From the NCBI GenBank assembly GCA_003514005.1, contig DOSJ01000019.1, positions 22,868-86,867 on the forward strand: DNA of 64,000 nt, read 5' to 3'. Every line of letters begins with the position of its first letter. The first letter of the stretch is position 1. The notes beneath the pieces were generated by a model that saw only the letters and a list, made by a program, of their open reading frames with translations, was not told the origin of the DNA and did not search any database. Source of the DNA: Candidatus Falkowbacteria bacterium. Its GTDB lineage: Bacteria > Patescibacteriota > Patescibacteriia > Patescibacteriales > UBA12075. The translations under genes and the position numbers were made by a program. Shown in pieces: positions 1,263 through 57,923 of the stretch.

Positions 1263-1273
1263 GGGGGGGTAGT

Positions 1274-1362
1274 GATTAGTTAATTAGTTAACTGGGGGGT
1301 GAAATTAAATAAAAAATATAATAAAAAATACCCTAATTAACTAATTAACCAATTAACTAATC
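1274..1362. repeat. intergenic hairpin, TTAATTAG word family
   Basis: Imperfect inverted repeat gattagttaattagttaa / ttaactaattaaccaattaactaatc around an A-rich loop. Confidence 0.7.
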
Positions 1363-6526: not shown

Positions 6527-6574
6527 TAATTCCTAAGTCCTAAGTACCTAATCCCTAATTAACTAATCCCTAAT

Positions 6575-9148
6575 TCATTTCACCACCACATTCACAAGCT
6601 TCCCTCCCACAAAAATAACTTTCATAATCTCTTTATCATCAATAAATTTTTTCACCTTCTCGCTCTCTAGCGCGATTTTTTTTGCGTCTTCTTCGGATAT
6701 ATTTGCATCAACTTCGATAGTATCACGCAGTTTTCCGTTCACCTGGATAACCATCTGAATCTTTTCGTCTTTGATCAATTCAGGGTCATACTTTGGCCAT
6801 GACTGTTTGAAAATTGATTCAGAATTTCCTAGTCCGCTCCAAATCTCCTCGGTAATATGCGGCGCAAACGGCGCCAAAATAATCAAAAATTTTTCATACG
6901 TATCTCGGCTAATCTCTTTTTCTTTTTCCAGGGCATTAACCAATATCATCATCGCACTAATCGCCGTATTAAACTTAAACTCCAAAATATCCTCTCCAAC
7001 CTTCTTAATGGTTTTATGCAGAAGATTTAATATCGCACTTGTCCCGGCTCCCCCACCGTGTTGCATGTTGCGTGTTGCGTGTTGCATGTTATATATTCTC
7101 TCAAGAAATTTCCTCGCCCCAACCAACCCATTCGTGCTCCAAGCAACCGACTGTGAAAACGGCCCCATAAACATTTCGTAAACACGCAAAGCGTCCGCGC
7201 CGTATTTTTCTACGATATCATTAGGATTAATCACGTTACCCCAACGCTTCGACATCTTGCGCCCGTCTTCGGCCATAATCAAACCGACATGCTGTAAACG
7301 CGTAAACGGCTCTTCGTAGTTGACCGCTCCGATATCAAATAAAAATTTGTGCCAAAAACGCGCGTATATCAAATGACGAGTGGCATGCTCGGCACCGCCG
7401 ACATAAAAATCAACCGGTGACCAGTATTTGTCTTTCTTGATATCGATTAACGCGTTATTATTTTTCGGATCAATAAACCTAAGATAATACCAACTGGATC
7501 CGGCCCACTGCGGCATAGTATTTGTTTCACGCTTGCCCGCACCGCCGCATTTCGGACATTTCGTATTCACCCATTCCGGAATAGTGGCCAAAGGCGACTC
7601 GCCAGTTCCACTTGGTTCATAATGCTCAACATCCGGTAAGCGTAACGGCAATTCCGATTCCGGCACAGGTATCGCACCGCATTTTTCGCAATGCACAATC
7701 GGTATCGGTTCGCCCCAATATCTCTGCCGCGAAAATACCCAATCTTTGATTTTGTAATTCACAGCTCTCTTGCCCAATCCTTTTTCCGTAAGCCAAGCAA
7801 TCATTTTCTCTTTGGCTTCGATAGCATAATACCCATTTAAAAATCCTGAATCAAATAACCATCCATAATCCGTAATAGCATGGGACGGATCTTTATTTAT
7901 GTCTTTTTGGGCTTGTTGTTTTAACAAAGATAATAATTCTTCATCTTCAATTTTATTTCCGCTATTAACACTAGTGGGGTTAACTGTTCTTCGTGTTAAT
8001 GTTTTTTCACTCTCATTCCAAAATTCAAGATAGCTATGAAGAATTGGTTTAATTTTAATATTATACTTCTTCGCAAACTCAAAATCTCTCTCATCATGCG
8101 CCGGCACAGCCATTATTGCCCCTGTTCCATAACCCATCATGACATAATCAGCAACAAAAATAGGCAACTCTTCTCCATTCACCGGATTGATAGCAACCAA
8201 ACCCTCAATCTTAACCCCGGTCTTTTCTTTATTAAGCTCCGTCCGTTCCATGTCCGACTTCGCCCCGGCTTTTTTCATATATTCTTCAACTTCATTAAAA
8301 TTGGAAATCGACAATCGGAAATCGGAAATTAACGGATGTTCTGGCGCAACCACAAAATAAGTCGCCCCAAATAGCGTATCCGGTCGAGTGGTGAATATTT
8401 CTTGTTCAATTTTCTTTTCATTCGGAAATCGACAATCGACAATCGCAAATTTCACAATCGCTCCCGTAGACTTCCCAATCCAATTCCTCTGCATCTCTTT
8501 GATCGAATGCTCCCAATCCGGCAATTTGTCGAGATCCGCAAGCAAGCGATCGGCATAATCCGTAATGCGCAGCACCCATTGCCGCATCGGTTTGCGCTCC
8601 ACTTCGGAATCACAGCGTTCACAACGTCCACCTTCTAGGTCTTCCATGGATAAACCGGTCTTGCAAGAAGGACACCAGATAATCGGCTCAAAAGATTCAA
8701 AAGCTAACCCGCGCTCAAACATTTTCAAAAACGCCCACTGCGTCCATTTATAAAATTCCGGATCAGTCGTATTTATCTCGCGCTCCCAATCATAAGAAAA
8801 ACCGATTTTAAGCAGCTGTTTTTTAAAAGTATCAATATTCTTTGCGGTCGCAATACGTGGATGAACCTTGTGCTTAAGGGCGTAATTCTCGGTCGGCAAC
8901 CCGAACGCATCCCAGCCCATAGGATGAAGAACATTGTAACCCTGCATTTTTTTCAAACGCGCAAAAATATCGGTCGCGATATAACCTTTCGGATGCCCGA
9001 CATGCAACCCTTCACCCGACGGATACGGAAACATATCCAAAATAAAATATTTCGGTTTTGTCGTGTCTTCGCTGGTTTTATACAGCCCGTCTTTCTCCCA
9101 TTTCTCCTGCCATTTTTTTTCTACTTCTTTGTGATTATAGTTTAACAT
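6575..9148 (-). CDS. leuS: leucine--tRNA ligase
   Basis: 857 aa. HIGH-type motif (GLHVGHPKGY), KMSKRWGN (KMSKS), FTTRPDTLFGATY and Zn-finger Cys pairs. Contains three word-repeat insertions. Confidence 0.95.
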   Translation of the reverse strand: MLNYNHKEVEKKWQEKWEKDGLYKTSEDTTKPKYFILDMFPYPSGEGLHVGHPKGYIATDIFARLKKMQGYNVLHPMGWDAFGLPTENYALKHKVHPRIATAKNIDTFKKQLLKIGFSYDWEREINTTDPEFYKWTQWAFLKMFERGLAFESFEPIIWCPSCKTGLSMEDLEGGRCERCDSEVERKPMRQWVLRITDYADRLLADLDKLPDWEHSIKEMQRNWIGKSTGAIVKFAIVDCRFPNEKKIEQEIFTTRPDTLFGATYFVVAPEHPLISDFRLSISNFNEVEEYMKKAGAKSDMERTELNKEKTGVKIEGLVAINPVNGEELPIFVADYVMMGYGTGAIMAVPAHDERDFEFAKKYNIKIKPILHSYLEFWNESEKTLTRRTVNPTSVNSGNKIEDEELLSLLKQQAQKDINKDPSHAITDYGWLFDSGFLNGYYAIEAKEKMIAWLTEKGLGKRAVNYKIKDWVFSRQRYWGEPIPIVHCEKCGAIPVPESELPLRLPDVEHYEPSGTGESPLATIPEWVNTKCPKCGGAGKRETNTMPQWAGSSWYYLRFIDPKNNNALIDIKKDKYWSPVDFYVGGAEHATRHLIYARFWHKFLFDIGAVNYEEPFTRLQHVGLIMAEDGRKMSKRWGNVINPNDIVEKYGADALRVYEMFMGPFSQSVAWSTNGLVGARKFLERIYNMQHATRNMQHGGGAGTSAILNLLHKTIKKVGEDILEFKFNTAISAMMILVNALEKEKEISRDTYEKFLIILAPFAPHITEEIWSGLGNSESIFKQSWPKYDPELIKDEKIQMVIQVNGKLRDTIEVDANISEEDAKKIALESEKVKKFIDDKEIMKVIFVGGKLVNVVVK

Positions 9149-9766: not shown

Positions 9767-10573
9767 TCATAATTCAATCCCAACCGGACAATGATCCGAC
9801 CCAAGCACTTTATCCAAAATATACGCGCTTTTAATTTTTTTCATTAAACTATCTGATACGCAAAAATAATCAATCCGCCAACCAACATTATTTCGCCGTG
9901 CGCCGGCGCGATAGCTCCACCAGGAATATTGGATTTTATTCGGATTAAGTTCACGGAAAGTGTCTTTGAAACCGGAAACCAAAAACCTATTCATCCATTC
10001 ACGTTCACGCGGATGAAACCCCGGGTTGCCGATATTTTCTTTAGGCCGCGCCAAATCGATTTCATTATGCGCGACATTAAAATCGCCCGTAACAATTAAC
10101 GGTTTGGTTTTTTCCAATTTTTTAAAATATTTTAACAATTTATCATTAAAATCAATTTTAAAATCCAAGCGCGACAATTCATGATTAGCATTGGGAAAAT
10201 AAATATTGGCCAAATAAAATTTGCCGAGGTCGATTATCTGAACACGCCCTTCATTGTCCCAATCCAATCTATCCAAATCCACAACTTTATAACTTTCAAC
10301 TTTCAAACTTTTTACTTTGTTACTTTCAACTTTCAAACTTTTTACTAAAACCGCCGTCCCCGAATATCCCGGCCGCTGTGCCGAATTCCAAAAAATATCA
10401 TAACCGATTTTTTCTGGATGCAAAATCTCGTCCAACTCTTTCTTGCGCGCCACCTCAGAAATTTTAATCTCCTGCAAACACAAAACATCCGGCTCTTCTT
10501 TTTTCAAAAAACCGAGAAGATCTTTTTTAATTACAGCGCGCAGGCCGTTTATATTCCAAGAGATTATTTTCAT
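9767..10573 (-). CDS. xth: exodeoxyribonuclease III
   Basis: Motifs ISWNINGLRA, LCLQEIK, GYSGTAV and SDHCPV. ATG 10573 (MKIISWN) preferred over the TTG at 10582. Contains a 30-bp tandem duplication. Confidence 0.9.
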   Translation of the reverse strand: MKIISWNINGLRAVIKKDLLGFLKKEEPDVLCLQEIKISEVARKKELDEILHPEKIGYDIFWNSAQRPGYSGTAVLVKSLKVESNKVKSLKVESYKVVDLDRLDWDNEGRVQIIDLGKFYLANIYFPNANHELSRLDFKIDFNDKLLKYFKKLEKTKPLIVTGDFNVAHNEIDLARPKENIGNPGFHPREREWMNRFLVSGFKDTFRELNPNKIQYSWWSYRAGARRNNVGWRIDYFCVSDSLMKKIKSAYILDKVLGSDHCPVGIEL

Positions 10574-10618
10574 ATAATACAAATCTTAAATCGAAAATCT
10601 GAAATCGAAAATCGAAAA

Positions 10619-12725: not shown

Positions 12726-13405
12726 TGAACAATCCCTTAAAACCCTGGTATAAAAAATGGTGGGGCGTATTGGCATTATTAGCGCTTTTGTTTTTTATAA
12801 GCATATTTTTTGCTTTTGTTTTTTTGGTTATCAATTCCCGTGATACTGCGCCTAGCTCTGGCATCAATCCTTTGTTAACGCAAAAAGTTCCGGCGCTGGC
12901 GATCGGTACGGAAAAAAACTATTGGCTCGGAAGCGCAAATCCAAAAATTACGATTGTCGAGTTTGGCGATTTTGCCTGTTCCTACTGTCAAAAATCGTTT
13001 TCCAAAATCCGAGAAATCAGCCAATTATACAAAAACGATATCAAATACATTTACCGCGACTATCCTGTCGTATCCGATTATTCCGCCAAGCTGGCCTTGG
13101 CCGCGCGCTGTGCCGGCGAACAAGGACTTTTTTGGATAATGCATGACAAGTTGTACATCAACCAAGGCATTAGTACGGATCAAGAAATATTAAATCATTT
13201 CAAACAAACCGGAGGCAATGAAGCAAAATTTTCCACCTGTTACGACGCAAACAAATATCTTCCCGAAATCGAAAAAGACTTGAGCGACGGACAATCTCTT
13301 AACATCACCGGCACGCCGACGTGGTTTGTGAATGGACAGAGGCTCGAGGGAGATGTGCCGTATGAGTATTTTATTAACCTAATTTCTAACATATTAGGTA
13401 CTTAG
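12725..13405 (+). CDS. DsbA/thioredoxin-fold thiol:disulfide oxidoreductase, membrane-anchored
   Basis: 226 aa with an N-terminal TM helix. CxxC active site in FGDFACSYCQ and a DsbA-like C-terminal part (ITGTPTWFVNG). Confidence 0.75.
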   Translation: MNNPLKPWYKKWWGVLALLALLFFISIFFAFVFLVINSRDTAPSSGINPLLTQKVPALAIGTEKNYWLGSANPKITIVEFGDFACSYCQKSFSKIREISQLYKNDIKYIYRDYPVVSDYSAKLALAARCAGEQGLFWIMHDKLYINQGISTDQEILNHFKQTGGNEAKFSTCYDANKYLPEIEKDLSDGQSLNITGTPTWFVNGQRLEGDVPYEYFINLISNILGT

Positions 13406-13488
13406 GTGCTTGGGTACTTAGGGGTTTGGTTTATTACAATTTTACCTCAACCCTAAGCACCCAAGCACCTAAGTACCTAAGTACCTAA
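13394..13488. repeat. intergenic hairpin, CCTAAGTA word family
   Basis: ttaggtacttaggtgcttgggtacttagggg vs ccctaagcacccaagcacctaagtacctaa: about 30 bp with 1 mismatch. Left arm contains the dsbA-like stop; right arm ends 4 nt before the porG ATG. Confidence 0.75.
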
Positions 13489-14034: not shown

Positions 14035-14060
14035 ACCCTATTTTTGATTAATAGAACAAA

Positions 14061-14128
14061 GTTAATTAGTTGATTAGTTAATTAGGGTATAAATATTTAC
14101 ATCCTAATTAACTAATCAACTAATTAAC
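14061..14128. repeat. hairpin between porG and porD, TTAATTAG word family
   Basis: gttaattagttgattagttaattagg (14061-14086) is the exact reverse complement of cctaattaactaatcaactaattaac (14103-14128). Confidence 0.8.
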
Positions 14129-14144
14129 TAATTAACTAACAAAT

Positions 14145-19624: not shown

Positions 19625-19708
19625 CGAATACTACAAATAACATTCAAATACTACAAAAATTTTTCAATTCAACATTTTGTAGTATTTGAATATCATTTGT
19701 AGCATTTG
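19625..19708. repeat. intergenic hairpin, TACTACAAA word family
   Basis: cgaatactacaaataacattcaaatactacaaaa vs ttttgtagtatttgaatatcatttgtagcatt. The same words occur at 45563-45640 and 49455-49490. Confidence 0.7.
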
Positions 19709-19954: not shown

Positions 19955-19970
19955 AATTTTTTTAAAAAAA

Positions 19971-20036
19971 GTTAATTAGTTAATTAGTGATTAGGAGCAT
20001 AATCCACTCGGCCTAATCACTAATTAACTAATCAAC
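19971..20036. repeat. hairpin upstream of porB, TTAATTAG word family
   Basis: gttaattagttaattagtgattagg vs cctaatcactaattaactaatcaac, a near-perfect 25-bp inverted repeat. Confidence 0.75.
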
Positions 20037-20050
20037 TAATAACATATTAT

Positions 20051-20995
20051 ATGCCAATAACCACAGAACAAAAAACAATCACAAAACCAAAACCCACCCC
20101 CTCCCTCTTCGCCGCCGGCCACCGGGGTTGTGCGGGATGCGGACAGATGCTGGCCGCGCGCACTGTTATCAATGCGCTAGGGACCAATACGATTATTGCG
20201 AACGCGACCGGGTGTTTGGAAGTTACCACCACGCCTTATCCGGAAAGCGCATGGGGTGTGCCGTGGATACATTCACTTTTTGAAAATCCGGCCGCGGTTG
20301 CGTCTGGAATATTGGCGGGACTTAAACAAAAAGGCAAGGACAAAAAAGTAAAAATCCTTGTACAGGGCGGCGACGGCGGTACTTTTGATATCGGTTTTGG
20401 GCTGATCAGCGGTATGTGGGAACGAGGCGAAAATATTCTTTATGTTTGCTACGACAATGAAGCCTACTCCAATACCGGCATGCAGGCATCAGGCGCAACA
20501 CCTTGGGCATCCAATACCACGACCACCCCGGCCGGAAGCGGAACAACGATAGACGCAATCGGCTCGCATCAAAGCAAAAAAGACATGATCGCGATCGCTT
20601 TGGCGCACGGTGTCAAATACGTCGCACAATGTACAACCGGCTACCTGGAAGACATCGAGGCCAAAGTAAAAAAAGCGGCAACAATCGAAGGTCCGTCATA
20701 TATCCAGATCCTTGCTCCCTGCATACCCGGCTGGCACATAAAACCGGACCAGGCCATGAGCCTAAGCCGTCTTGCCACCCAAACCGGCCTTTATCCCCTT
20801 TTGGAATATACTGACGGAGCGTTAACCAAAGTTATGCCGGTCCCAGCTAATACGCCGCGCGTCGAAGAATATCTAAAACCGCAAGGACGCTTTTCTCATC
20901 TATTCAAAGGCGACCACGGCAAAGAATTGATCGCGCAAGTACAGGCTTTGGCGGATGGGAATATTTTGAAGTATGGATTGAAAAAAGTGACTTAA
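20051..20995 (+). CDS. porB: 2-oxoacid:ferredoxin oxidoreductase beta subunit (TPP-binding)
   Basis: 314 aa with GHRGCAGCG, GGDGGTFDIGF and YVCYDNEAYSNTG, typical of POR beta. Confidence 0.85.
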   Translation: MPITTEQKTITKPKPTPSLFAAGHRGCAGCGQMLAARTVINALGTNTIIANATGCLEVTTTPYPESAWGVPWIHSLFENPAAVASGILAGLKQKGKDKKVKILVQGGDGGTFDIGFGLISGMWERGENILYVCYDNEAYSNTGMQASGATPWASNTTTTPAGSGTTIDAIGSHQSKKDMIAIALAHGVKYVAQCTTGYLEDIEAKVKKAATIEGPSYIQILAPCIPGWHIKPDQAMSLSRLATQTGLYPLLEYTDGALTKVMPVPANTPRVEEYLKPQGRFSHLFKGDHGKELIAQVQALADGNILKYGLKKVT

Positions 20996-21042
20996 GTTAA
21001 TTAGTAATTAGTTAATTAGGGAATAAAAAATAATCCTCTTTT

Positions 21043-21153
21043 TTGTCATCTCGCAGCGAAGCGGAGAGATCCCTTAACGATTAATTATATATAGATTATT
21101 TTATTTTTTGAACCATGTTTAAGAGATTCCTCCGCTTCGCTACGGAATGACAA
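21043..21153. mobile_element. ORF-less miniature of the GIY-YIG-element ends (element G)
   Basis: ttgtcatctcgcagcgaagcggagagatccctta (21043-21076) and taagagattcctccgcttcgctacggaatgacaa (21120-21153) are inverted (about 28/34), separated by 43 nt. Confidence 0.65.
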
Positions 21154-21170
21154 AAAAAGTGAAATAACAA

Positions 21171-21208
21171 AAAATAAAAATCGGTTATTAAAACCGATTT
21201 TTATTTTA
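21171..21208. terminator. bidirectional terminator between convergent porB and rpoC
   Basis: Stem aaatcggtt / aaccgattt flanked by an A-run on the left and a T-run on the right. Confidence 0.65.
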
Positions 21209-21261
21209 TTATCTAAACAATTATCAAATCCCTATTCCCTAAGTACCTATGCCCTAATTAC

Positions 21262-24200
21262 CTAATAAATCTTCCTCTCCCGATTCCCCTTATACCCTGT
21301 CCCTGCCGGTATCAAGCGGCCGATAATAACATTCTCTTTCAATCCTTCCAGATAATCGATCTTGCCCGTAACCGCGGATTCGATCAAAACGCGAGCGGTT
21401 TCTTGGAATGATGCGGCGGATAGGAAACTGTCGGTTGACAAAGATGCTTTGGTAATACCCATAAGCAAACGAGTAGCTTTGATCTCTTTATTATTCTTGC
21501 GTCGTGCGCGCGCCAATACGCTGCCCTCGACTATTTCACCGGGCAAAAGATCAGAGTCGATCGTTTCGCTGATATAGAAGCGCGAGAACATCTGCTTGGC
21601 AATAATCTCAATATGTTTATCATTCAAAGGCTGACCTTGTGATGAATAAACGTTTTGAATTTCTTTGATAATATAGCGCTGTGTGCTTAAGCGGTCTTTG
21701 AGCGTGAATAACTGCTGTAAATCCATACTGCCGTCAGTCAATTGGTCGCCTTTCTTAACCTCTTCGCCCGCCTGCACCATAATCGACATTCCTTTGGGAA
21801 CGATAAATTCTTTTACTTTTTTCGTTTCCACCTTAATCTTTACGGACTTTTCATCAATCTCGACAACGCCGCCGTTATTCGCGATCACAACAATGTCTCC
21901 AGCCGTAAACAAGCGTGTACCGGCGCTGACTTTATCGCCTTCTTTCACTTCAATCTTCGGTTCAAAAGCTTCGGCAGATTTTTTGCCTTTGGTTTTAATA
22001 CCACTGTTTTTCTTATCACTGGCGGCTTTTTGCTGAGCTTCTTTTATGGTTTCCGCGAAATAATATTTATCAACGTCAATGCCGTCATAATTAATCTTGA
22101 GTATTTTTACCTGTGGGTTGCTGACTGTGGTTTTTCCGGTTTCATCCTCAATCGTCCGCTGTCCGGCTTCGATCGAAACCAAGCCGTCTACATCCGAAAT
22201 AAAGGCTTTGCGCTTTGGCGGCCGGCATTCGAATATTTCTTCCACGCGAGGCAAACCTTGGGTAATATCTTCACCGCCGGCAACACCACCCGAATGGAAG
22301 GTTCTCATAGTCAGCTGTGTTCCCGGCTCACCGATCGATTGCGCGGCAATAATTCCGACTGCGGTACCCAAAGAAACTTCTTTGTTGTGACCAAGATCCC
22401 AGCCATAGCAATGTGTACAAACACCGCGATCAAGTTTGCAGCTAAGCACGGAACGGATACAAGCTTCATTAACTTCTTCGTCCTGAATGGATTCAATAGT
22501 ATCTTCCACCATCAACGTGCCTTTTGGCACCAGAACCTTGCCTTTGACATTTTTCAAATCATCCGCCAAATAACGTCCGAGAATCCGATCCATTAAAGTC
22601 GTACCCATATTCTCGCTATCAATTTTTGTAAATACCAAACCTTCGGTATCGCCGCAATCATCGTCTGTGATAATAATATCTTGTGAAACATCCACCAAAC
22701 GTCTAGTCAAATAACCGGCATTAGCGGTACGCAAGGCAGTATCGGACAAACCTTTACGCACGCCATGGCTGGAAATAAAGTACTCCAAAACATCAAAACC
22801 GCGTTTGAAGTTTCCTTTGACAGGCAATTCGATAATATCACCCGAAGGAGAAGTCACAAGGCCCTTCATGCCCAGAATCTGCGTCAACTGTGCCCAGCTT
22901 CCACGGGCGCCGGAATCGATCATAGAAAATACCGGACCGTCTTTTGGCAAGCCCTTTTTACAAATATCCGTCACTCTTTCTTTTACACCTGACCAAAGCT
23001 CAATAACCTTGGCATAACGCTCGGAGTCGGTCAAAAGACCTTCGTCGTATTGATCTTGGATTTTTTCAACCATCTCTTGCGTATCAGAAATCAAAACATC
23101 TTTTTCCTCAAAGCGCGGCAAATCGCCCATACCCCAAGAAAGTCCGCTTTTTGTAATATAGCTAAAGCTTTTTTCTTTCAAATCATCCAAAAATTCACCG
23201 GTCTGTTTCGGACCATAATAGCGATAGCACAATTTTACCAAATTTTTCAATTTTCCTTTATCAACGACATGATTAACAAAGCGCAATTTTTCCGGCAAGA
23301 TATCATTAAAAATAATTCGTCCAACCGTAGTCTTGGTAACGCCGATATTTTCAAGTTTTACGAATATCGGATCATGCAGTTTGATGACTTTTGATTCATA
23401 AGCCAAGCGCGCTTCTTCACCAGATGAAAAACGCTTGATGTTTTTTTCTTCAATACTGCTTTTTACTTCGTTGGTAATATAATAAGTTCCCCAAACAATA
23501 TCTTGACCGGGCGCGACCACCGGGTCACCAGTAGCCGGCTTCAGCAGGTTCTTTGCAGAAAGCATGATGTTTTTTGCTTCATCCACCGCTTCTTTTGTCA
23601 ATGGAACATGTACGGCCATTTGATCACCATCAAAGTCAGCGTTAAACGCACTGCAAACCAAAGGGTGAATCTGAATCGCCTTGCCCTCAATCAAGATCGG
23701 CTTGAAGGCTTGGATACCCAAGCGATGAAGCGTTGGCGCACGGTTTAACATAACATAAGCGCCGTCAATGATTTTTTCCAAAATATCCCAAACAATATCT
23801 GCGCCGGATTCGATAAAACGCGAAGCACTGCGTACATTGTGTACTACTTCTTTTTCAATCAATTTGCTTATGATAAAAGGTTTGAAAAGCTCGATAGCCA
23901 TCAATTTTGGCAAACCGCATTGATCAAGTTTCAGTTTCGGATTTACCACGATAACGCTACGTCCGGAATAATCAATACGTTTCCCAAGCAAGTTCTGACG
24001 GAAACGGCCTTGTTTTCCTTTGAGCGAATCAGCCAAAGATTTTAACATGCGTTTCTGTCCAGTAGACGCGATAACGGTCTTGCCATGACGAGCAGAGTTG
24101 TCAATCAAAGCATCGACCGCTTCCTGCAACATTCTTTTCTCATTGCGCTGAATAACTTCCGGTGCGTTCAGGTCAATCAGCTGGCGAAGACGATTGTTAC

Positions 24201-25256: not shown

Positions 25257-25329
25257 AATTCTAATTTCTAATTTCTAAAGCCTAAATTTATGATTAAATT
25301 TAGAAATTAGAAATTAGAAATTAGAAATT
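25257..25329. repeat. rpoB-rpoC intergenic hairpin, TTAGAAA word family
   Basis: aattctaatttctaatttctaaagcctaaattt vs aaatttagaaattagaaattagaaattagaaat. The right arm is 4 units of a 7-nt period. Confidence 0.8.
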
Positions 25330-29287: not shown

Positions 29288-29342
29288 TACACTACCATTT
29301 TATATTTCTAAAACTAATCCTATTCCCGCACCTATGCCCTAA

Positions 29343-30737
29343 TCACCTTTTTAGCTCATTCAAAAGCCCTCTCACCACCGCCCGATCATCCCAAGGAATT
29401 TTCTCGCCGTTTGCGATACAAATCGCTTGTTCACTACCCTTGCCGGTAATAAGTACAATGTCATTTTCAGTCGCCAATTCCAGCGCCTTTTTAATCGCTT
29501 CGCGTCTGTCCAAAATCTTGAATAAATTTTCGCCGATTTTCTTTCCGGCATGTTCCGCGCCCAAAGCGACTTGATCGATTATTATCTCTGGGTCATCATC
29601 ATAAGGGTCTTCATTGGCAACTATTACATAGTCAGCATTCATTCCAGCTAGCTTGCCCAAAACAGGCCGGCGCGCGACATCGCGTCCGCCGCCGGTCGAA
29701 CCAAGGACATGGATTATTTTTCCATGAGGAATATACTTTAGCGCGCCATATAATTTTTCTACGGCATTCGGTTCAAAGGCATAATCGACAATCACGGCAA
29801 ATGGCTGGCCTTCCTCGATTTTTTCCAACCGGCCGTCAATCCCCTTTATTTTTTCCAAACCGCTTTTGATTATGGTCATATCCAAACCGATTGCCTGCCC
29901 GACGCTAACGGCATTCATGGCATTAACCGCGTTAAACTCTCCGAGCAATCCAAGATTGATAACAGCCCCGTCTACCACAAAGCTGGTACCCTTACCGCTT
30001 GCTTTTATATCGCCAAATATAATTTTTTTCAAATTCTTTATTGCCAACTGTAAATCATTATTTTTCGTATAGGCAATCTTTTTTACAGCGCTAAAGCCCA
30101 AAAAATACTCTGCCTGCTCATCATCGCCGTTCGCGATAATTACTTTTTCGATTTGTTGTAGCTCAATCTTTCTAATGCCGGATTCGGATTTTATAATCCG
30201 CCCGCTGTCATCCATTCGTTTGATTTTACAATTTTTTAGATGCGCGAACAATCTGCCCTTTGCTTCTTTATATTTTTCAAAACTGCCGTGCGAATCAATA
30301 TGCTCCGGATACAACCCGGTAAAAACCAAAATATCAAAATTAATAAAGCGATGACGATATTGCACTATCCCCTCGGACGTTGTTTCAATAACGGTATAAC
30401 GACAGCCGTTTTTCACCATATGCCGGAGCATCTTCTGCGTAAAAAAACGGCCGACCATTGTCATCTTTTTATCATTCAACCATTCTTTCTTGCCATCATT
30501 AAAAGCCGCGGTCGAAGTAAACCCGGTCTTAAGTCCCGCCTCTTCCAACATTTTTGCAATCAAATATACGCTCGTTGTTTTGCCAGTCGTTCCAGTCACG
30601 CCGATAACGATTATATCTTCGCTCGGATGCCGATACACAAAAGCCGAAAACCAGCTCATAAAGAAATGGTATGGAGGTTGGAGCGTTTTAAAAAGTTTTT
30701 TTGGGATTAGTTTTTTTATTTTGAAAATTATACTCAT
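29343..30737 (-). CDS. murE: Mur ligase, MurE-like (UDP-MurNAc-L-Ala-D-Glu:diamino-acid ligase)
   Basis: GVTGTTGKTT P-loop, VDYAFEPNA and GSTGGGRDVARRP...ADYVIVANEDP resemble MurE. ATG 30737 preferred, because the track start 30785 is the CAT of a MITE end. Confidence 0.7.
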   Translation of the reverse strand: MSIIFKIKKLIPKKLFKTLQPPYHFFMSWFSAFVYRHPSEDIIVIGVTGTTGKTTSVYLIAKMLEEAGLKTGFTSTAAFNDGKKEWLNDKKMTMVGRFFTQKMLRHMVKNGCRYTVIETTSEGIVQYRHRFINFDILVFTGLYPEHIDSHGSFEKYKEAKGRLFAHLKNCKIKRMDDSGRIIKSESGIRKIELQQIEKVIIANGDDEQAEYFLGFSAVKKIAYTKNNDLQLAIKNLKKIIFGDIKASGKGTSFVVDGAVINLGLLGEFNAVNAMNAVSVGQAIGLDMTIIKSGLEKIKGIDGRLEKIEEGQPFAVIVDYAFEPNAVEKLYGALKYIPHGKIIHVLGSTGGGRDVARRPVLGKLAGMNADYVIVANEDPYDDDPEIIIDQVALGAEHAGKKIGENLFKILDRREAIKKALELATENDIVLITGKGSEQAICIANGEKIPWDDRAVVRGLLNELKR

Positions 30738-30938: not shown

Positions 30939-31976
30939 TCACTTTATCTTCCTTCTCACCCACCTAAGCCAATTATACATCTTATACAAAACCGAATCAA
31001 ACACCGCATCAAAAGTCCCCGGATAGTCAACTTCTTCTCCGCCATAACCTTTTTTAAACCGCGTAACTCCCGGCCATTTACTCTCGTCAATGCCAAAAAA
31101 ATCATAATATCGACAACCACGCGCCTTTGCTTCGCGAATACTCTGCCACTGCAAAGCATAAGTCGCCATCAAATTCCGATATTCATTTGAAGAAGCGCCA
31201 TGCACATAGGTCACGGTATCGCCAAAAAACGCAACAATATTTCCGGCAATAATTTTGTTTTGATATTTTGCAATAAATAATTTAATAGACAAACCTGATA
31301 TTGAATATTGATTATTGGAAATTGAATTATTATTGGATATTGAATGATTATTGAGTATTGAATATTGAACATTAAAAAGCATTTTCCAATAATACTCCTT
31401 ACCATGCAAGCGAAACCCATCACGCTCATTCGTTTCCCGCATAATCTCCCAAAACTCTTCAAAATCCTCTTTCTTAGCCTCACTAATTTCTATCCCCTTC
31501 TTTTCTGTCAAACGAATATTATAACGAGTCTTCGGATGCATCTGTTTCAATATTTCATCTTCTGATTTTGAAATATCAAGTATCAATGTCTTTTTCGGCT
31601 GCAAAGAAATTGTTTCTATAATTTTATACTTCTTACTTCTAACTTCTAACTTCACAACCGGTTCAAAACGCAAAAATATACATTTTTCTTTTTTCGCAAT
31701 TTTTTTTATCTCCAAAAACAAATCGGAAATCGCAAATCGCAAATCGCAAATCCCCACCCTTGGCGCATAAAAATACCCCAACCCCAAAAACAATCTTTTT
31801 CTAATCAAAGTAACCACGCCAACCAACTCTCCGTTTTCCTCAATCCCAAACCGAAAAACCTTATTCCCAGCCGCTTCCTGAAATTCTCCCCACTCGAAAG
31901 ACTGCAAAAATTGGCTTTGTTTTTGTTTAGTTAAATAATTATTTAATTGTTCTTTAGTTATATCTATTAATCTCAT
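30939..31976 (-). CDS. FemAB-family peptidoglycan interpeptide-bridge aminoacyltransferase
   Basis: 345 aa with FLQSFEWGEFQ, HGASSNEYRNLMATYALQW and RYYDFFGI, typical of the FemAB/FemX family. Three word-repeat insertions. Confidence 0.75.
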   Translation of the reverse strand: MRLIDITKEQLNNYLTKQKQSQFLQSFEWGEFQEAAGNKVFRFGIEENGELVGVVTLIRKRLFLGLGYFYAPRVGICDLRFAISDLFLEIKKIAKKEKCIFLRFEPVVKLEVRSKKYKIIETISLQPKKTLILDISKSEDEILKQMHPKTRYNIRLTEKKGIEISEAKKEDFEEFWEIMRETNERDGFRLHGKEYYWKMLFNVQYSILNNHSISNNNSISNNQYSISGLSIKLFIAKYQNKIIAGNIVAFFGDTVTYVHGASSNEYRNLMATYALQWQSIREAKARGCRYYDFFGIDESKWPGVTRFKKGYGGEEVDYPGTFDAVFDSVLYKMYNWLRWVRRKIK

Positions 31977-32413: not shown

Positions 32414-32463
32414 TTCTTAATTCTAACTTCTTACTTCTTCCTTCTAACTTCTAACTTCTCACT

Positions 32464-33048
32464 TCATCTCCCAATCAACCGCAACGCCGCTCGAATTCTC
32501 TCACCCGAACCCTTAATACTCGGATCAACCTGCCGCAAAACATCACGCGCTTCAAACATGGAATAACCCAGGGCCATCAAAGCGTCAATCTCTTCCCCCG
32601 AAGTAATCATCCCTTTACCATCTGTCGCTTGCAGTACGCCATGTGAAATATGCGCAATCTTGTCACGCAAATCTAAAACCACACGCTCGGCAGTCTTCTT
32701 ACCGATCCCTGAAACTTTTATCAAAAGCGAAGAATCACCACGCGATATCGAATCCTTGATATCATCGACACTCGCGATGCCAATAACAGCAAGCGCCGAT
32801 TTCGGCCCAATACCGCTAATCGTCAAAAGTAATTCAAACATCTCTAATTGTTCTAATGATTTAAAACCGTACAGGGTGTGGGCATCCTCACGAATATGCT
32901 GATGAATATACAGCTCTATTTCCTGTCCGATTTCAAGGTCAACAAAAATAGTTTCACTGACAAAAACCAGGTAACCAATGTCACGCACGTTCAAAATAAT
33001 ATAATTCTTTTGTTTGTTTTGAATTTTTCCTCGTAAATACGCTATCAT
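32464..33048 (-). CDS. ruvA: Holliday junction DNA helicase subunit RuvA
   Basis: 194 aa with MIAYLRGK.., HhH motifs (ISGIGPKSALAV, VSGIGKKTAERV) and a C-terminal domain III. Confidence 0.9.
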   Translation of the reverse strand: MIAYLRGKIQNKQKNYIILNVRDIGYLVFVSETIFVDLEIGQEIELYIHQHIREDAHTLYGFKSLEQLEMFELLLTISGIGPKSALAVIGIASVDDIKDSISRGDSSLLIKVSGIGKKTAERVVLDLRDKIAHISHGVLQATDGKGMITSGEEIDALMALGYSMFEARDVLRQVDPSIKGSGERIRAALRLIGR

Positions 33049-33122
33049 AAATTTCTAAATCCTAAATTATAATTTCTAAATTAATGCATTTATTAGACAT
33101 TAGAAATTATAATTTAGAAATT
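33049..33122. repeat. hairpin, TTAGAAA word family
   Basis: Right arm 33093-33122 is the reverse complement of a 30-mer (aatttctaaattataatttctaatgtctaa) found identically at 39613-39642. The right arm supplies the last 5 codons and stop of the U32 ORF. Confidence 0.8.
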
Positions 33123-34399
33123 TTTCTTCTTATCACACTAAACTCCACCACCATCTCATCCAACTCCAACCACACCAAAGCCCCCTGCCCACCATGCGCC
33201 TCTGCAATTTCCGCCCCGGTTTTAGCGTCCCAAAGCCTTTCCACCTTCAGCTTAATTATATCATACTTCGGCTTCACAATCTCAATCTCATCGCCAACTC
33301 TAATTGAATTATGAACTTTAATTAAAACCTTCTCACTTCTTGCTTTGAACTTCTTACTTCTAACTTCTAACTTCTTACTTACCACAACTCCGCAAAACTC
33401 CCACTCACTTTTCTCATGCGAATTATCCAAATTCTGATCCGCCTTATCTCCCAACAAAAACCCGGTCGTATAACCACGATGCACAAGTTTTGTTTCCAGC
33501 TCTTTTTGTAAATATTCCATTTCAACGATCTGATTTTTTTTATTTTTAATACCAAGCAATTCTATCGCCCGTGAATAAATACCCGCAACTACCGCCTGAT
33601 AATAAACGCTCTTTGCTCGTCCCTCGATCTTAAAACTTGAAATCCCAGCTTCTTGAAGTTCCTTTAAATATTTCACCAAACACAAATCCTTCGAATTCAA
33701 AATATACGACCCATGTTCTTCTTCAACAATTTCAAACTCATCACCTTTCTCATTTCTTACTTCTAACTTCTCACTTCTCACATCCCCCTTCCATCTACAA
33801 GGCTGCACGCAATCCCCCAAATTCGCGCTCCTATCCGCATAATATTTTGACAAAAAACAACGCCCTGAATAAGCCATGCACATCGCGCCATGCACGAAAT
33901 ATTCTAATTCCAAATCAGGACATTTTTTATGAATCATTTTGATTTCCGGCAAAGTCGTTTCACGACCCAGAATAATTCTTTTCACTCCTTGCGCTTGCCA
34001 AAATTTTGCCGCCTGCCAATTTGTGCAATTAGCCTGCGTGGAAAGATGAATTTCAACTTCTGGCCAAATTTCTTTTACAATCTCAATCACGCCAGGGTCA
34101 GAAATAATCAAAGCATCGACTTTTATTTTTTTTAATTTTTTAATATATACTGGCAATTTTTCCAAATGTCGATTATGCGCAAAAATATTTACGGTGATAT
34201 AAATCTTCTTACCGATTTTATGGCAATATTCAGTAGCCTCCTTAATTTTCTCCAAATCAAAATCATTAATCCTCACCCGTAAAGAAAAATCCGGAATCCC
34301 GGCATAAACCGCATCCGCCCCAAAAACAAGAGCCGTCTTCATCTTCTCCATATTCCCAGCCGGAGCAAGCAATTCAATTTTACTAAATTTTTTATCCAT
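33107..34399 (-). CDS. peptidase U32 family protein
   Basis: 430 aa with ELLAPAGN, YFVHGAMCMAYSGRCFLS, CVQPCRW and FKIEGR, typical of U32. Confidence 0.85.
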   Translation of the reverse strand: MDKKFSKIELLAPAGNMEKMKTALVFGADAVYAGIPDFSLRVRINDFDLEKIKEATEYCHKIGKKIYITVNIFAHNRHLEKLPVYIKKLKKIKVDALIISDPGVIEIVKEIWPEVEIHLSTQANCTNWQAAKFWQAQGVKRIILGRETTLPEIKMIHKKCPDLELEYFVHGAMCMAYSGRCFLSKYYADRSANLGDCVQPCRWKGDVRSEKLEVRNEKGDEFEIVEEEHGSYILNSKDLCLVKYLKELQEAGISSFKIEGRAKSVYYQAVVAGIYSRAIELLGIKNKKNQIVEMEYLQKELETKLVHRGYTTGFLLGDKADQNLDNSHEKSEWEFCGVVVSKKLEVRSKKFKARSEKVLIKVHNSIRVGDEIEIVKPKYDIIKLKVERLWDAKTGAEIAEAHGGQGALVWLELDEMVVEFSVIRRKISKL

Positions 34400-34535
34400 A
34401 TATTATTACCCTAAATATAACCCTAAACAAAGAAAAAATCAACCAAAAAACCGACTCAAAAAAAGTCGATTTTTTTAAAATTAATAATAATATAAATCCT
34501 ATTCCCTAAGTACCTAATTACCTAATCCCTAACCC

Positions 34536-35366
34536 CTATTTCCCCAATATCTTCTTAATCTTCGCCACTATTTCCTCAGTCGTAAAATGCGCTTTTACCA
34601 GATAATCATTCGCCCCCATATCCATCGCTTTTTTAATATCATCGTCTTGTCCAAGATTCGAAAGCATGATTACCGGCACTTTGGCGATTTTTTCTTCTGT
34701 GCTTGTCCTGATTTGATTCAGTACTTGGAATCCATCAATCGCCGGCAAAATTATGTCCAAAAGCACAATGTCAGGCTTTATCGCTTTCACACCATCAATC
34801 GCTTGACTACCGTCAACCGCCTCAAAAACCGTATAACCCTCTTTAGTCAATTTTTTGCTCGAAATTTCACGCAAAAAAGAATCGTCTTCAACCAACAAAA
34901 CTTTAACACCCAAATTTCTTACCTTTGGATCTTCACGCGGTATCAAAACCTGCATATCCGCGTCGCTCTTCAGCGCCTTGCCGTCATTGCTTAGACATAA
35001 CTGCACTTTCTTTAAAACATCCAATGGGCTGAATTCGGTTTTGATAAGATGATCAACCGCTCCTAGCATTTTTGTTTTTTCAATTTCCACCGGCTGTCCA
35101 GAATTGGATATGATGATGACCGGAATTTTAACATTGTTCATGTTCATCTTCTCTAGGACTTCATACCCATCCATCTTGGGCATAACAATATCCAAAAGGA
35201 TTAAATTCGGCTGCCAATCAATAATTTTTTTATAACCGTCTTCGCCGTCATAAGCCGCTTCAACGATAAACCCTTCCTTTTTTAATTTTGTCACTAAAAG
35301 ATCAATCAAAGAACGCTCGTCTTCAATGATCAAAATCTTGATTTCGCTATTGATTATTTCTGTCAT
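34536..35366 (-). CDS. response regulator with two tandem receiver domains, no output domain
   Basis: 276 aa. REC1 (ILIIEDE..LILLDIVMPKMDG) and REC2 (VLLVEDD..IVLLDIILPAIDG). Confidence 0.8.
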   Translation of the reverse strand: MTEIINSEIKILIIEDERSLIDLLVTKLKKEGFIVEAAYDGEDGYKKIIDWQPNLILLDIVMPKMDGYEVLEKMNMNNVKIPVIIISNSGQPVEIEKTKMLGAVDHLIKTEFSPLDVLKKVQLCLSNDGKALKSDADMQVLIPREDPKVRNLGVKVLLVEDDSFLREISSKKLTKEGYTVFEAVDGSQAIDGVKAIKPDIVLLDIILPAIDGFQVLNQIRTSTEEKIAKVPVIMLSNLGQDDDIKKAMDMGANDYLVKAHFTTEEIVAKIKKILGK

Positions 35367-39612: not shown

Positions 39613-39696
39613 AATTTCTAAATTATAATTTCTAATGTCTAAAGATTTATTAAATATGCAAAAATTTAGACATTAGAAATTAATAATTTAGAAATT
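39613..39696. repeat. hairpin, TTAGAAA word family
   Basis: aatttctaaattataatttctaatgtctaaa vs tttagacattagaaattaataatttagaaatt. Lies between htpX and the tRNA. Confidence 0.8.
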
Positions 39697-39780: not shown

Positions 39781-39785
39781 TAAAA

Positions 39786-39853
39786 AATTTCTAAGTTCTA
39801 ATTCCTAATTTCTAATCTTTTATTTAGAAATTATAATTTAGGACTTAGAAATT
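39786..39853. repeat. hairpin, TTAGAAA word family
   Basis: aatttctaagttctaattcctaatttctaa vs ttagaaattataatttaggacttagaaatt. Confidence 0.8.
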
Positions 39854-39940
39854 TATATTAATATAATATCTTATTTTAAATAAAAAAACAATAAAAAAAC
39901 ACCCATCTTTTAAAGACGGGCATTTTAAATATATTCGTAA

Positions 39941-43057: not shown

Positions 43058-43095
43058 AGTTGTAAATTTCTAAATTATAATTTCTAATTCCTAAA

Positions 43096-43137
43096 AATCC
43101 GCGTTAATCCGCGTTAATCCGCGTTTGAATCCGCGTC
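43096..43137. repeat. 10-bp direct repeats AATCCGCGTT x3 plus one degenerate unit
   Basis: aatccgcgtt at 43096, 43106 and 43116, then aatccgcgtc at 43128. Lies between the GldG-like stop and the DUF4340 start. Confidence 0.75.
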
Positions 43138-43148
43138 CATACGCGTTT

Positions 43149-44702: not shown

Positions 44703-44813
44703 AAGTTTTAGTTGAAAGTTGAAAGTTAAAAGTTATAAAGTATAAAGTTATAAAGTTAATAAATTTAAAGTTTAAAAATTACTTTCAACTTTATAACTTT
44801 AAACTTTTTACTT
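44703..44813. repeat. hairpin, AGTTGAAAGT word family
   Basis: agttgaaagttgaaagttaaaagttataaagt... vs actttcaactttataactttaaactttttactt. The same words lie inside xth (10292-10346). Confidence 0.75.
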
Positions 44814-45552: not shown

Positions 45553-45562
45553 AAAAATTATA

Positions 45563-45640
45563 ATTCAAATCTACAAATGATATTCGAATACTACAAATAA
45601 TATTTTTGTAGTATTTGAATATCATTTGTAGTATTCGTAT
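45563..45640. repeat. hairpin, TACTACAAA word family
   Basis: attcaaatctacaaatgatattcgaatactacaaa vs tttgtagtatttgaatatcatttgtagtattcg. Confidence 0.75.
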
Positions 45641-45651
45641 TAATTTATCAT

Positions 45652-46581: not shown

Positions 46582-46592
46582 ATACAAATTTT

Positions 46593-46673
46593 AATTTCTA
46601 ATTTCTAAATTATAATTTCTAATAAATATAATTAAAAAATAATTTAGAAATTAGTAATTATAATTTAGAAATT
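46593..46673. repeat. hairpin in 5-prime leader of the ABC operon, TTAGAAA word family
   Basis: aatttctaatttctaaattataatttctaa vs ttagaaattagtaattataatttagaaatt. Lies between candidate promoter 46687-46714 and the ATG. Confidence 0.8.
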
Positions 46674-46686
46674 ATTAATTAATAAA

Positions 46687-49445: not shown

Positions 49446-49520
49446 AAATATAATGCAAATACTACAAATGTAATTCAAATGCTACAAATAAATAATTTCT
49501 TACTTCTAACTTCTCACTTC

Positions 49521-57833: not shown

Positions 57834-57923
57834 TTTTCGTTAATTTCGTATATATTCGTTTTTTTCGTGTCTTTGTTATAAACAGAAACACAAAAAAAAC
57901 GAATATATACGAAATAACGAAAA
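57834..57923. repeat. hairpin between mreC and mreD, CGTATATATTCG word family
   Basis: ttttcgttaatttcgtatatattcgtttttttcgtgtctttg vs cagaaacacaaaaaaaacgaatatatacgaaataacgaaaa. Confidence 0.75.

Follow-up and report, generated by a model that had tools for sequence, protein, structure and literature searches.

Long hairpins of tandem 7- and 8-nucleotide words in the gene spacers of a Candidatus Falkowbacteria genome

The DNA examined here is a 64-kb window of one Candidatus Falkowbacteria genome (groundwater; Candidate Phyla Radiation (CPR)/Patescibacteria), and "the window" refers throughout to this whole stretch of 64,000 nucleotides. Many of its gene spacers, among them the spacer between rpoB and rpoC, hold long hairpins whose arms are tandem arrays of short words, mainly of 7 or 8 nt. 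The hairpins are a genuine feature, with robust statistics and an unusual density. The anatomy of the hairpins, their statistics, their distribution among relatives and the copies of the same words in frame inside genes are described below as they were observed. As to how they arose, we see about an even chance that they are slippage-prone heptamer and octamer arrays, amplified in this lineage, which spread in the manner of repetitive extragenic palindromic (REP) elements and stand in the spacers as inverted pairs.

The same contig and its proteins were found in 10-24 independent assemblies by exact-protein look-up (the matching contig is LBUC01000003.1, assembly GCA_000992375.1; four window proteins also appear under Candidatus Falkowbacteria bacterium GW2011_GWC2_38_22, GWE1_38_31 and GWF2_38_1205), so that an assembly artefact is an unlikely source of the hairpins. 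The window uses the standard genetic code; an alternative code was considered and ruled out, as TGA is the stop in ~14 of 50 genes and long open reading frames (ORFs) are intact. A Shine-Dalgarno-like motif lies within 20 nt of the start in only 2 of 50 genes, and the gene leaders (50 upstream regions) are A/T-rich and G-poor. It appears from these leaders that translation in this organism is initiated without Shine-Dalgarno pairing.

Anatomy and statistics of the word hairpins

Word lengths across the 16 spacer hairpins are 7-9 nt, mainly with periods 7 and 8 and one of 9. They are listed below with coordinates and strand; gene context was taken from Pfam scans, and the fold z-scores compare the RNA folding of each hairpin with 200 dinucleotide-preserving shuffles.

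25260..25325, minus: TTTCTAA/TTAGAAA hairpin in the rpoB-rpoC spacer (the site originally flagged); 29 pairs; folding energy (dG) -30.8; z -9.2; begins 21 nt past the rpoB stop and finishes 14 nt ahead of the rpoC ATG
33060..33119, minus: TTAGAAA-family hairpin, peptidase U32-ruvA; z -5.0; finishes 11 nt ahead of the ruvA ATG, with the U32 stop TAA (33107-33109) inside its 5' arm
39613..39696, minus: TTAGAAA-family hairpin 3' of tRNA-Arg; z -10.2; position 39613 is 9 nt ahead of an M48 peptidase ATG
39785..39854, minus: TTAGAAA-family hairpin 5' of tRNA-Arg (39708-39780); z -5.7; 4-nt gap to the tRNA 5' end
46591..46682, minus: TTAGAAA-family hairpin 9 nt upstream of an ABC ATPase start; z -5.8
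58779..58846, minus: TTAGAAA-family hairpin, mreB-mreC; z -10.4; 1 nt past the mreB TAG and 14 nt ahead of the mreC ATG
1270..1359, minus: TTAATTAG (8-mer) hairpin, ksgA-next ORF; z -2.4 (fold of 1263-1383), the weakest of the set
14060..14129, plus: TTAATTAG hairpin, porG-porD; 32 pairs; z -12.6; 15 nt ahead of the porD ATG
19970..20037, plus: TTAATTAG hairpin 13 nt upstream of porB; z -9.4
13394..13480, plus: TTAGGTAC/CCTAAGTA (8-mer) hairpin, DsbA-like gene-porG; dG -55.6; z -9.8; 11 nt ahead of the porG ATG, with the stop TAG 13403-13405 inside its 5' arm
51497..51602, minus: CCTAAGTA-family hairpin upstream of dnaK; z -11.5
44716..44813, minus: AAAGTTn/AGTTGAAAGT heptamer hairpin filling the spacer of two ABC-transporter genes; z -4.1
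45561..45642, minus: TACTACAAA-family hairpin past an ABC ATPase stop; z -10.2
19631..19702, plus: second TACTACAAA-family hairpin; z -9.2
53356..53452, minus: ATTGAATATTG-family hairpin past grpE; z -4.1; grpE stop (53448-53450) inside its 5' arm
57834..57923, minus: CGTATATATTCG-family hairpin, mreC-next gene (probably mreD); 42 pairs; z -9.6; stops in only 3 of 6 frames

One further hairpin is split, and other arrays of the same kind of words stand alone.

20995..21263, strand unassigned: split word hairpin with arms 20995-21025 (TTAATTAG) and 21233-21263 (CCCTAA type), 77% complementary, parted by an inserted MITE (a miniature transposable element with inverted repeats, 21039-21157) and a terminator-like hairpin (21171-21207)
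6527..6574, strand unassigned: unpaired 7/8-nt run filling a convergent spacer, of TTAGGG type right past the leuS stop
29318..29345, minus: unpaired TTAGGG-type run right past the stop of a Mur ligase gene
34495..34540, minus: unpaired TTAGGG/TTAGGTA run right past the stop of a response-regulator gene
32414..32465, minus: unpaired GTTAGAA heptamer array of 7 units, the first of which (GTGAGAA) holds the ruvA TGA stop
49493..49521, minus: unpaired GTTAGAA-family array right past the dnaK stop
10583..10618, minus: unpaired TCGATTT/AAATCGA heptamer array filling a 36-nt intercistronic spacer
43058..43148, minus: lone TTAGAAA-family core copy (43067-43088, 0 mismatches), followed by a AATCCGCGTT x5 array

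An earlier note on this DNA, written from the sequence before any analysis, had listed TTAGAAA/TTTCTAA hairpins at 25257-25329, 33049-33122, 39613-39696, 39786-39853, 46593-46673 and 58775-58844, TTAATTAG hairpins at 1274-1362, 14061-14128 and 19971-20036, CCTAAGTA hairpins at 13394-13488 and 51497-51602, and CCCTAA/TTAGGG-type unpaired runs at 6527-6574, 21225-21262, 29318-29345 and 34495-34540. Every one of these was recovered at its place, and each of the four runs starts right behind the stop codon of a minus-strand gene; families TACTACAAA, AGTTGAAAGT, ATTGAATATTG and CGTATATATTCG are also present in the window. Its further observations, that 33093-33122 (reverse complement) and 39613-39642 share one 30-mer without a mismatch and that natural stops (13405, 33107, 53448) lie within hairpin arms, were likewise borne out.

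Fifteen of the 16 spacer hairpins have fold z-scores from -4.1 to -12.6, and for these at most one shuffle of 200 folds equally well; the remaining one (1263-1383) has the z of -2.4 given above. Shuffled sequence, which the earlier note had named as the control to run, is thus far exceeded. In intergenic DNA the autocorrelation has sharp maxima at lags of 7 (z 8.1), 8 (z 9.5) and 15 (z 5.9) and at no other lag, and 29 period-7 and 13 period-8 tandem arrays (at least 3 copies) were counted by Tandem Repeats Finder over the 64 kb. The 22-mer core of the TTAGAAA family, TTTCTAAATTATAATTTCTAAT, occurs in 13 copies with at most 3 mismatches, where 0.01 are expected; in similar counts three other word strings have 9-13 copies each, against 0.03 or fewer expected.

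A census was made of the 40 spacers of at least 60 nt, and a helix of at least 18 pairs was present in 30. Clear 7/8-nt word hairpins make up 12 of those 30 (13 with the 58-nt spacer 33049-33106), and in the other long-helix spacers the helix belongs to a MITE-like element, to a longer palindrome that is unique, or to words of another period. The assertion that most spacers are long hairpins holds, then, while their derivation from a few 7-8 nt word families is right for slightly less than half of them. In the heat-shock cluster, the hsp20 and hrcA-grpE spacers contain two very long, near-perfect hairpins of non-word type (52649-52751 and 53973-54127; one a 28/28-pair stem, the other of ~65 pairs).

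Pairing differs between families and between settings. The spacers hold ~16 paired loci and 7 unpaired ones, and the arrays in ORFs are mostly single. In the GTTAGAA family 13 of 13 matches lie on the sense strand, never paired, right past stops or inside ORFs. The unpaired runs of the window have a dG of about 0. The 13 copies of the 22-mer core are spread over 7 loci, mostly as inverted pairs. In the TTAGAAA family the complementarity between arms of different hairpins (mean 0.86) equals that with their own partner (0.85). Private covariation between the two arms of a TTAGAAA hairpin is thereby ruled out, with no sign of compensatory evolution, and the arms are copies of one dispersed unit of ~20-30 nt centred on the palindrome AAATTATAATTT. 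Guide arrays of the CRISPR or TIGR type (TIGR-Tas) were also considered and rejected: each locus consists of two arms and one loop, without regular arrays and without an Rfam hit. A scan of the whole window at Rfam gathering thresholds returned tRNA-Arg only, and no RNA family over any hairpin.

The predicted stems comprise ~24-42 pairs and sit tightly between genes. In 13 of 16 cases 2-19 nt separate the stem's 3' base from the following start codon or tRNA 5' end; the 5' base lies no more than 25 nt past the upstream stop in 11 of 16, three of these with the stop inside the arm. When the stem is subtracted, the two flanks together leave a residual spacer of -2 to 267 nt (median ~38), where co-directional spacers without hairpins measure 27-39 nt. 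According to the Pfam scans the neighbouring genes include rpoB-rpoC, MreB-MreC-(MreD?)-PBP2, porG-porD, an ABC-transporter cluster and hrcA-grpE-hsp20-ORF-dnaK-dnaJ. Two TTAGAAA-family hairpins flank the tRNA-Arg gene, separated from it by 4 nt on the 5' side and by no more than ~11 nt on the 3' side. Because a strong promoter-like site (46714-46687, 11 of 12 matches) sits just upstream of the 46591-46682 stem, this stem may be a hairpin of a 5' leader.

The same words inside genes and among relatives

Arrays of the same words were found in frame inside several genes, of which the following are examples.

1873..1991, minus: heptamer-word hairpin inside the ksgA ORF, in frame; z -5.05; ~29 extra residues ahead of the NLPY motif
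1588..1617, minus: in-frame GTTAGAA array in ksgA ('KLEVRSKK'), aligning residue by residue to native KsgA
31298..31373, minus: in-frame CAATATT array in a variable-length segment of femAB
33329..33380, minus: GTTAGAA array read in frame in peptidase U32; each third unit is mutated, which leaves no in-frame TAG
8298..8329, minus: in-frame ATTTCCG array in a variable loop of leuS
10283..10346, minus: in-frame AGTTGAAAGT-family array in an Exo_endo_phos-family gene ('SLKVESNKVKSLKVES'); no fold, z +0.3

Further in-frame arrays occur in femAB (31628-31653, GTTAGAA; 31719-31752, GATTTGC), peptidase U32 (33747-33781) and leuS (8427-8445 and 7059-7090), so that GATTTCC/GATTTGC words are shared by leuS and femAB. 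The unit GTTAGAAGTTAGAAGTAAGAAG is read as 'KLEVRSKK' in ksgA and femAB, with two variant copies in peptidase U32, and its longer copies have lost the in-frame TAG via mutation of each third unit. Structure alignments of KsgA and LeuRS place the arrays inside ORFs in variable segments, with little or no gain in length; the exception is ksgA 1873-1991, where the span of residues 114-156 is matched by 13 residues in the KsgA of B. subtilis.

When FemAB is aligned with 18 Patescibacteria homologues, its arrays are seen to occupy three variable segments. At one femAB site different heptamers are found in different genomes: GTTAGAA in the window (31628-31653) and in locus L203 (366-397), a TTAGAAA-like word in L082 (1107-1133), TAAATAC in L083 (10336-10365) and perfect TTCAAAA x4.5 in L084 (10329-10360). 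Since orthologues carry different heptamers there, the loop peptide is the three-frame translation of whichever 7-nt unit is present. This suggests arrays that are long-lived and evolve in concert within femAB, an essential gene.

The density of period-7 arrays (at least 3 copies) per 100 kb is 45 in the window, 20 in syntenic Patescibacteria loci, 4.4 in CPR rpoB loci and 1.3 in non-CPR loci, that is, ~35-fold denser in the window than in the last. Period-8 arrays reach 20 per 100 kb in the window, and all other periods 8 or fewer. Period 7 is the mode throughout the Patescibacteria samples, whereas periods 6 and 9 dominate in non-CPR loci. Among the matches listed, 7/8-nt arrays are all but missing from the representatives of the nearest species by RpoB (85-87% identity), whose rpoB-rpoC spacers measure 18-78 nt and are without a comparable stem; a scan of genome contigs with the RpoB C-terminus gave 87% as the best match among those listed, and a metagenome scan with the ABC auxiliary protein a top identity of 63%.

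The closest relative by FemAB is L082 (74% identity), with 5 arrays in 1.8 kb and TTTCTAA right past the femAB stop; the array past the ruvA stop has 7 units in the window and ~3 in L082. In the syntenic loci L083 and L084 heptamer arrays of CTAAT type stand immediately 5' of rpoC, the one in L084 being half of an imperfect hairpin, and L004 has an unpaired nnnCTAA run just upstream of rpoC. A Zambryskiibacteria locus (L048) has an AAAGTnn heptamer hairpin resembling 44716-44813, and in another Falkowbacteria genome (L202, 47% G+C), which has few arrays overall, one hairpin of 9-mer words fills a spacer. The question put in the earlier note, whether the families are shared with relatives, receives a divided answer: arrays are present in some Patescibacteria loci, but in the relatives compared the hairpins are not retained at orthologous spacers.

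Viral contigs were scanned as well. The TTAGAAA core (an AT-rich 18-mer) gave 11 matches, which were informally judged to be compatible with chance. The exact 20-mer TTAGTTAA x2.5 was found in 98 viral contigs (IMG/VR loci L104-L183) as direct arrays, not hairpins. These octamer arrays occur in unrelated contigs, among them giant-virus bins and one recurrent phage group (e.g. L125 4-119, L110 6841-6884), with well over 20 units in some.

The ruvA-femAB spacer itself (31977-32463, minus; ~490 nt) has ~75% identity with L082 190-785. It contains G+C-rich helices with compensatory changes (CTGGTGTTTGAATACCAG vs CCAGTATTTGTATACTGG) and repeated CATAGGCGnTnTCTCC boxes, and no Rfam family matches it at E <=0.01. 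The spacer may encode a leader or non-coding RNA not described before.

Origin of the arrays and rival explanations

In the account to which we give about even weight, the 7/8-nt arrays would originate and change length through replication slippage, and some word combinations would have spread over the genome as REP-like dispersed units of ~20-30 nt. The inverted pairs in spacers were probably made by snap-back or template-switch copying. Once transcribed, such a pair would form a self-contained, AU-rich stem of ~24-42 pairs within an otherwise ordinary intercistronic spacer, and the self-closed stem would keep the upstream stop and the downstream start near one another. It is because self-closure leaves these two adjacent that RNA polymerase, and the ribosomes of operons lacking Shine-Dalgarno sites, would tolerate the stem; tolerance of this kind may in turn be why paired arrays dominate spacers and single arrays dominate ORFs. 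The words would enter any unconstrained DNA, including the surface loops of essential proteins, where selection would strip the in-frame stop from each third unit, and stops in all frames would simply follow from the TAA or TAG present in AT-rich words, with no selection for them.

Several observations point to such an origin: the bias to periods 7 and 8, the difference in unit number past ruvA (7 in the window, ~3 in L082) and the concerted change of units in femAB; the dispersed 22-mer core, the absence of conservation at orthologous spacers and a residual spacer close to the length of hairpin-free ones; and also the lack of a T-run, the sites in essential operons, the scarcity of Shine-Dalgarno motifs, the arrays in variable loops and a stop content that depends on the family.

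Other observations weigh against it. About 70% of the intergenic arrays are inverted pairs and those in ORFs are mostly single, for which slippage alone does not account; selection for pairing, or a dedicated mechanism, may be the cause of the excess. Nor does slippage alone explain the arrival of identical 22-30-mers at distant loci. Among cluster members of at least 90% identity (two per cluster) no polymorphism in unit number was found, only single substitutions outside the arrays. Function, not tolerance, could lie behind the steady placement a few nt ahead of starts and to either side of a tRNA. Finally, the evidence base is 64 kb of one genome, examined as sequence only.

The foremost alternative we consider possible though doubtful: the stems would be selected RNA punctuation, acting as RNase III sites that cut the polycistronic mRNA or tRNA precursor, or as 3'-exonuclease barriers or 5' caps that set half-life. 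Phage T7 intercistronic sites and REP stabilisers work as such punctuation, and REP elements and bacterial interspersed mosaic elements (BIMEs) act as mRNA stabilisers in E. coli. The predicted stems of ~24-42 pairs exceed the ~20 bp of near-perfect double-stranded RNA that RNase III requires. They stand between a stop and the following start in operons whose genes require individual dosage, and they flank tRNA-Arg; one, right behind the strong promoter-like site, may be a 5' leader, and the long helices in 30 of 40 long spacers suggest a general demand for structure. However, the same spacers in most relatives are without a hairpin: rpoB-rpoC spacers measure 18-134 nt and mostly have no comparable stem, and the U32-ruvA spacer is only 3 nt in L084. 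The same words are moreover found unpaired and inside ORFs. Under a slippage origin a function at the RNA level would be secondary, and a 3'-exonuclease block, RNase III processing and 5'-end protection are plausible candidates for it.

It seems unlikely that the hairpins are mobile elements, whether non-autonomous transposable ones or of the type mobilised by REP-associated tyrosine transposases (RAYT), inserting as ready-made palindromes. There are multiple near-identical copies, including the 30-mer identical at two loci, occupancy varies between relatives, and genuine MITEs co-occur in the window. The dispersed, conserved unit is likewise as in REP/BIME elements; the palindromic unit is not, as only the 12-nt centre AAATTATAATTT is self-complementary and single units do not fold. 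Rickettsia palindromic elements are palindromic repeats that lie in frame within essential genes and are translated. The in-frame palindrome that adds residues to ksgA (1873-1991) resembles them, a likeness of behaviour only and the one such case; most other arrays inside ORFs replace residues, some swapping native ones without gain in length. No target-site duplications were found at the stems (the longest string common to both flanks has a mean of 4.4 nt, against 4.2 nt for cross-pairs). Neither length nor termini are fixed, with word order, number of units and loop varying in every copy, whereas the genuine MITEs of the same window do have defined terminal inverted repeats and a length and sequence that are roughly constant among copies. 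No transposase gene, of RAYT/IS200/IS605-like or any other kind, was among the Pfam hits in the window and its 10-kb flanks.

Termination or attenuation independent of a U-tract is improbable. In its favour, the stems are very stable, lie just past stops in co-directional and convergent spacers, and neither a word hairpin nor an array is present in any of three divergent spacers; with n=3, this lack is too small a sample for significance. Against it, a consensus terminator scan of the sense strand flagged no word hairpin, and there is no T-run behind the stems (examples of the bases found there are ATTTAATAAAAT, CCCCCCC and GTACCTAACAA), whereas canonical terminators with a G+C stem and a T-run do exist elsewhere in the window (42109-42087, 39926-39896, 34475-34445, 54973-54945). 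Known intrinsic terminators are alike in having a stable stem near a stop, but the stems here are not G+C-rich and have no short loop or U-tract. They lie not at the ends of transcription units but inside obligatory operons (rpoB-rpoC, mreB-mreC, porG-porD, ABC subunits), with 2-19 nt left downstream, which is no room for a promoter. The view of the earlier note that hairpins inside operons are not simply terminators agrees with these results, the operons having been confirmed by Pfam.

The earlier note had stressed that the words place stop codons in all six frames. All 11 hairpins of the three named families do have stops in all six frames, but so do 47-81% of dinucleotide shuffles of the same sequences, as is to be expected at the 11-25% G+C of these spacers. 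The TTAATTAG hairpins contain 22-26 stops where 12-18 are expected, a clear excess (shuffle P about 0), and so does the hairpin at 25257, with 20 where 14.2 are expected (P 0.000); the one at 39786 is borderline (P 0.016). The excess is not significant in the remaining TTAGAAA hairpins (P 0.06-0.16) or in the CCTAAGTA hairpins. The AGTTGAAAGT and ATTGAATATTG hairpins have no enrichment, and the TACTACAAA and CGTATATATTCG hairpins have fewer stops than their shuffles (57841-57917 has 4 against 12.4 expected, in 3 of 6 frames). In most families, then, the words have no excess of stops over sequence of matched composition. Stops in every frame characterise certain words and not the system as a whole, and the stop-codon interpretation is largely an effect of composition. 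The rationale that 7 and 8 are not multiples of 3 leaves unexplained why periods 4, 5, 10 and 11 are not used.

It is therefore very improbable that the words are traps selected for six-frame stops that end read-through, frameshifted or spurious translation: three arms carry a natural stop and TAACTGA repeats share the property (PMC4679880), but neither the restriction to periods 7 and 8 nor the pairing is explained, and words are kept in ORFs at the price of mutating each third unit. Equally little weight is given to sites acting at the DNA level, as promoters or as binding sites of a regulatory or nucleoid protein: the 12-nt perfect palindrome AAATTATAATTT, with a perfect TATAAT, stands in each of the two arms in most copies of the TTAGAAA family, yet other families are without a -10-like motif, the promoter scan does not pick out hairpins, and a period of 7-8 nt does not fit the DNA helical repeat.

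The window also holds elements and gene arrangements of other kinds. Between porD and porA lies an element (14408-14903) with 56-nt terminal inverted repeats, 93% complementary and beginning TTTTTTGTCAT, which contains a small GIY-YIG nuclease gene (14476-14814). A second GIY-YIG gene (16292-16594) has like ends, and several spacers hold gene-less MITE-like copies with the same termini; the further sites of this family are 16205-16237, 16596-16710, 12380-12521, 21039-21157, 30780-30913 and 37507-37673, with a partial copy near 19368-19398. A similar MITE-like element is found in the femAB-murE spacer of L083 (11018-11147). Another MITE-like family, which has no relation to the word hairpins, comprises two palindromic copies of ~165 nt (~41788-41950 and ~55018-55197) with terminal inverted repeats of ~33 nt (GGCCGAAAATAAATAATTGATTTTTATTAAATTA). 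The pyruvate:ferredoxin oxidoreductase operon is broken up over 13492-20995, the order being porG, porD, GIY-YIG element, porA, GIY-YIG element, two genes of type IV secretion (T4SS)-pilin-like proteins, an SLT transglycosylase, a HigB-like toxin and porB. Upstream of the toxin gene, 18554-19087 (534 nt, counted as spacer) reads by eye as a fragment of a HigA/VapI-type helix-turn-helix antitoxin (NVPARRINEIVHGKRAISADTALRLGKYF) and may be a short or degraded gene below the ORF cut-off. A perfect CIRCE operator (54886-54912, TTAGCACTC-N9-GAGTGCTAA) stands upstream of hrcA-grpE-hsp20-ORF-dnaK-dnaJ and overlaps a promoter-like site (54903-54874).

Relation to described repeats and biological meaning

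According to two papers that cite Mrazek 2007 (PMC4679880, PMC4692102), heptanucleotides are the commonest class of long simple-sequence repeats (LSSRs) in most prokaryotic genomes, and by the proposal they relay, ~7 nt is the DNA segment held by the polymerase, which would favour slippage. The arrays of the window agree with LSSRs in their tandem units of 7-8 nt, in the change of units between genomes and in their intergenic bias near stops and starts. In Xanthomonas, Rehm et al. 2015 (PMC4692102) described ~185 (GGGANTN)n repeats in each of two genomes, with a preference for spacers of aligned ORFs and few cases in divergent spacers; they lie on the sense strand up to 50 bp past stops, sometimes overlapping them, or antisense just upstream of ORFs, and GGGAATC forms 70-75 convergent inverted pairs that are potential stem-loops. 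These heptamers and GGGGA(C/T)T of Nostoc are alike to those of the window in being tandem, variable, mostly intergenic and different between close species, and the unpaired TTAGGG/GGGATTA runs of the window fit (GGGANTN)n and follow stops directly. The window differs in its many AT-rich families, its periods of 7 and 8 (one of 9) and its stems of 24-42 pairs that fill operon spacers, and also in its weak G-quadruplex potential, its CPR host and the in-frame words in essential genes.

The TAACTGA repeats of Beggiatoaceae, cyanobacteria and Bacteroidetes (MacGregor 2015, PMC4679880) carry stops in three frames, overlap the ends of ORFs, lie a few nt before starts where Shine-Dalgarno sites are rare, occur in ribosomal and RNA polymerase operons and have occasional in-frame copies at protein peripheries. 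They differ in that one word is nearly always repeated directly (one indirect set in 170) with no structure predicted, whereas the window has many words, mostly inverted. We know of no systematic hairpin arrangement for the heptamers called short tandemly repeated repetitive (STRR) sequences. These, from heterocystous cyanobacteria (Calothrix; cited in PMC4692102), are alike in forming dispersed intergenic families of tandem heptanucleotides and differ in being direct arrays and in their cyanobacterial hosts. REP/BIME elements and MITEs (PMC3184786) are alike in being dispersed extragenic units, often in alternating orientation, with stem-loops past stops in operons; by contrast, the units of the window are not palindromic, are made of tandem sub-repeats, vary and have no target-site duplications.

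The earlier note had not recognised a described repeat system here, but heptameric LSSRs have already been reported in kind (PMC4692102, PMC4679880). Searches of the literature for heptamers or intergenic hairpins in CPR, Patescibacteria or Falkowbacteria returned no report. What is novel is the AT-rich, multi-family, hairpin-forming version in a CPR genome with in-frame copies; the kind itself is known but poorly understood.

A bolder idea, which we rate as distinctly unlikely, is that a peculiarity of replication or repair in Patescibacteria, most extreme in this Falkowbacteria lineage, actively writes arrays in 7-nt steps into all unconstrained DNA, loops of essential proteins included, and that in operons lacking Shine-Dalgarno sites inverted arrays were then co-opted as stems for the hand-over of ribosomes. 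Were this true, the hand-over stems would hold stop and start side by side, and translation would be coupled across an insert of 60-100 nt.

In practical terms, such repeats can be a source of error when CPR genomes are assembled and when their genes and terminators are predicted. The dynamics of slippage in uncultured bacteria can be gauged from orthologues with different heptamers at matching codons, and the in-frame arrays are a concrete case of simple-sequence DNA shaping the loops of essential proteins. Heptamer repeats have been noted in Xanthomonas, cyanobacteria and Beggiatoa but have received little study; in this CPR genome they are carried to an extreme and take another form, that of stable stems which fill spacers of essential operons and flank a tRNA. 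If these stems are processed or affect coupling, they would constitute a main layer of punctuation for gene expression in organisms without Shine-Dalgarno sites.

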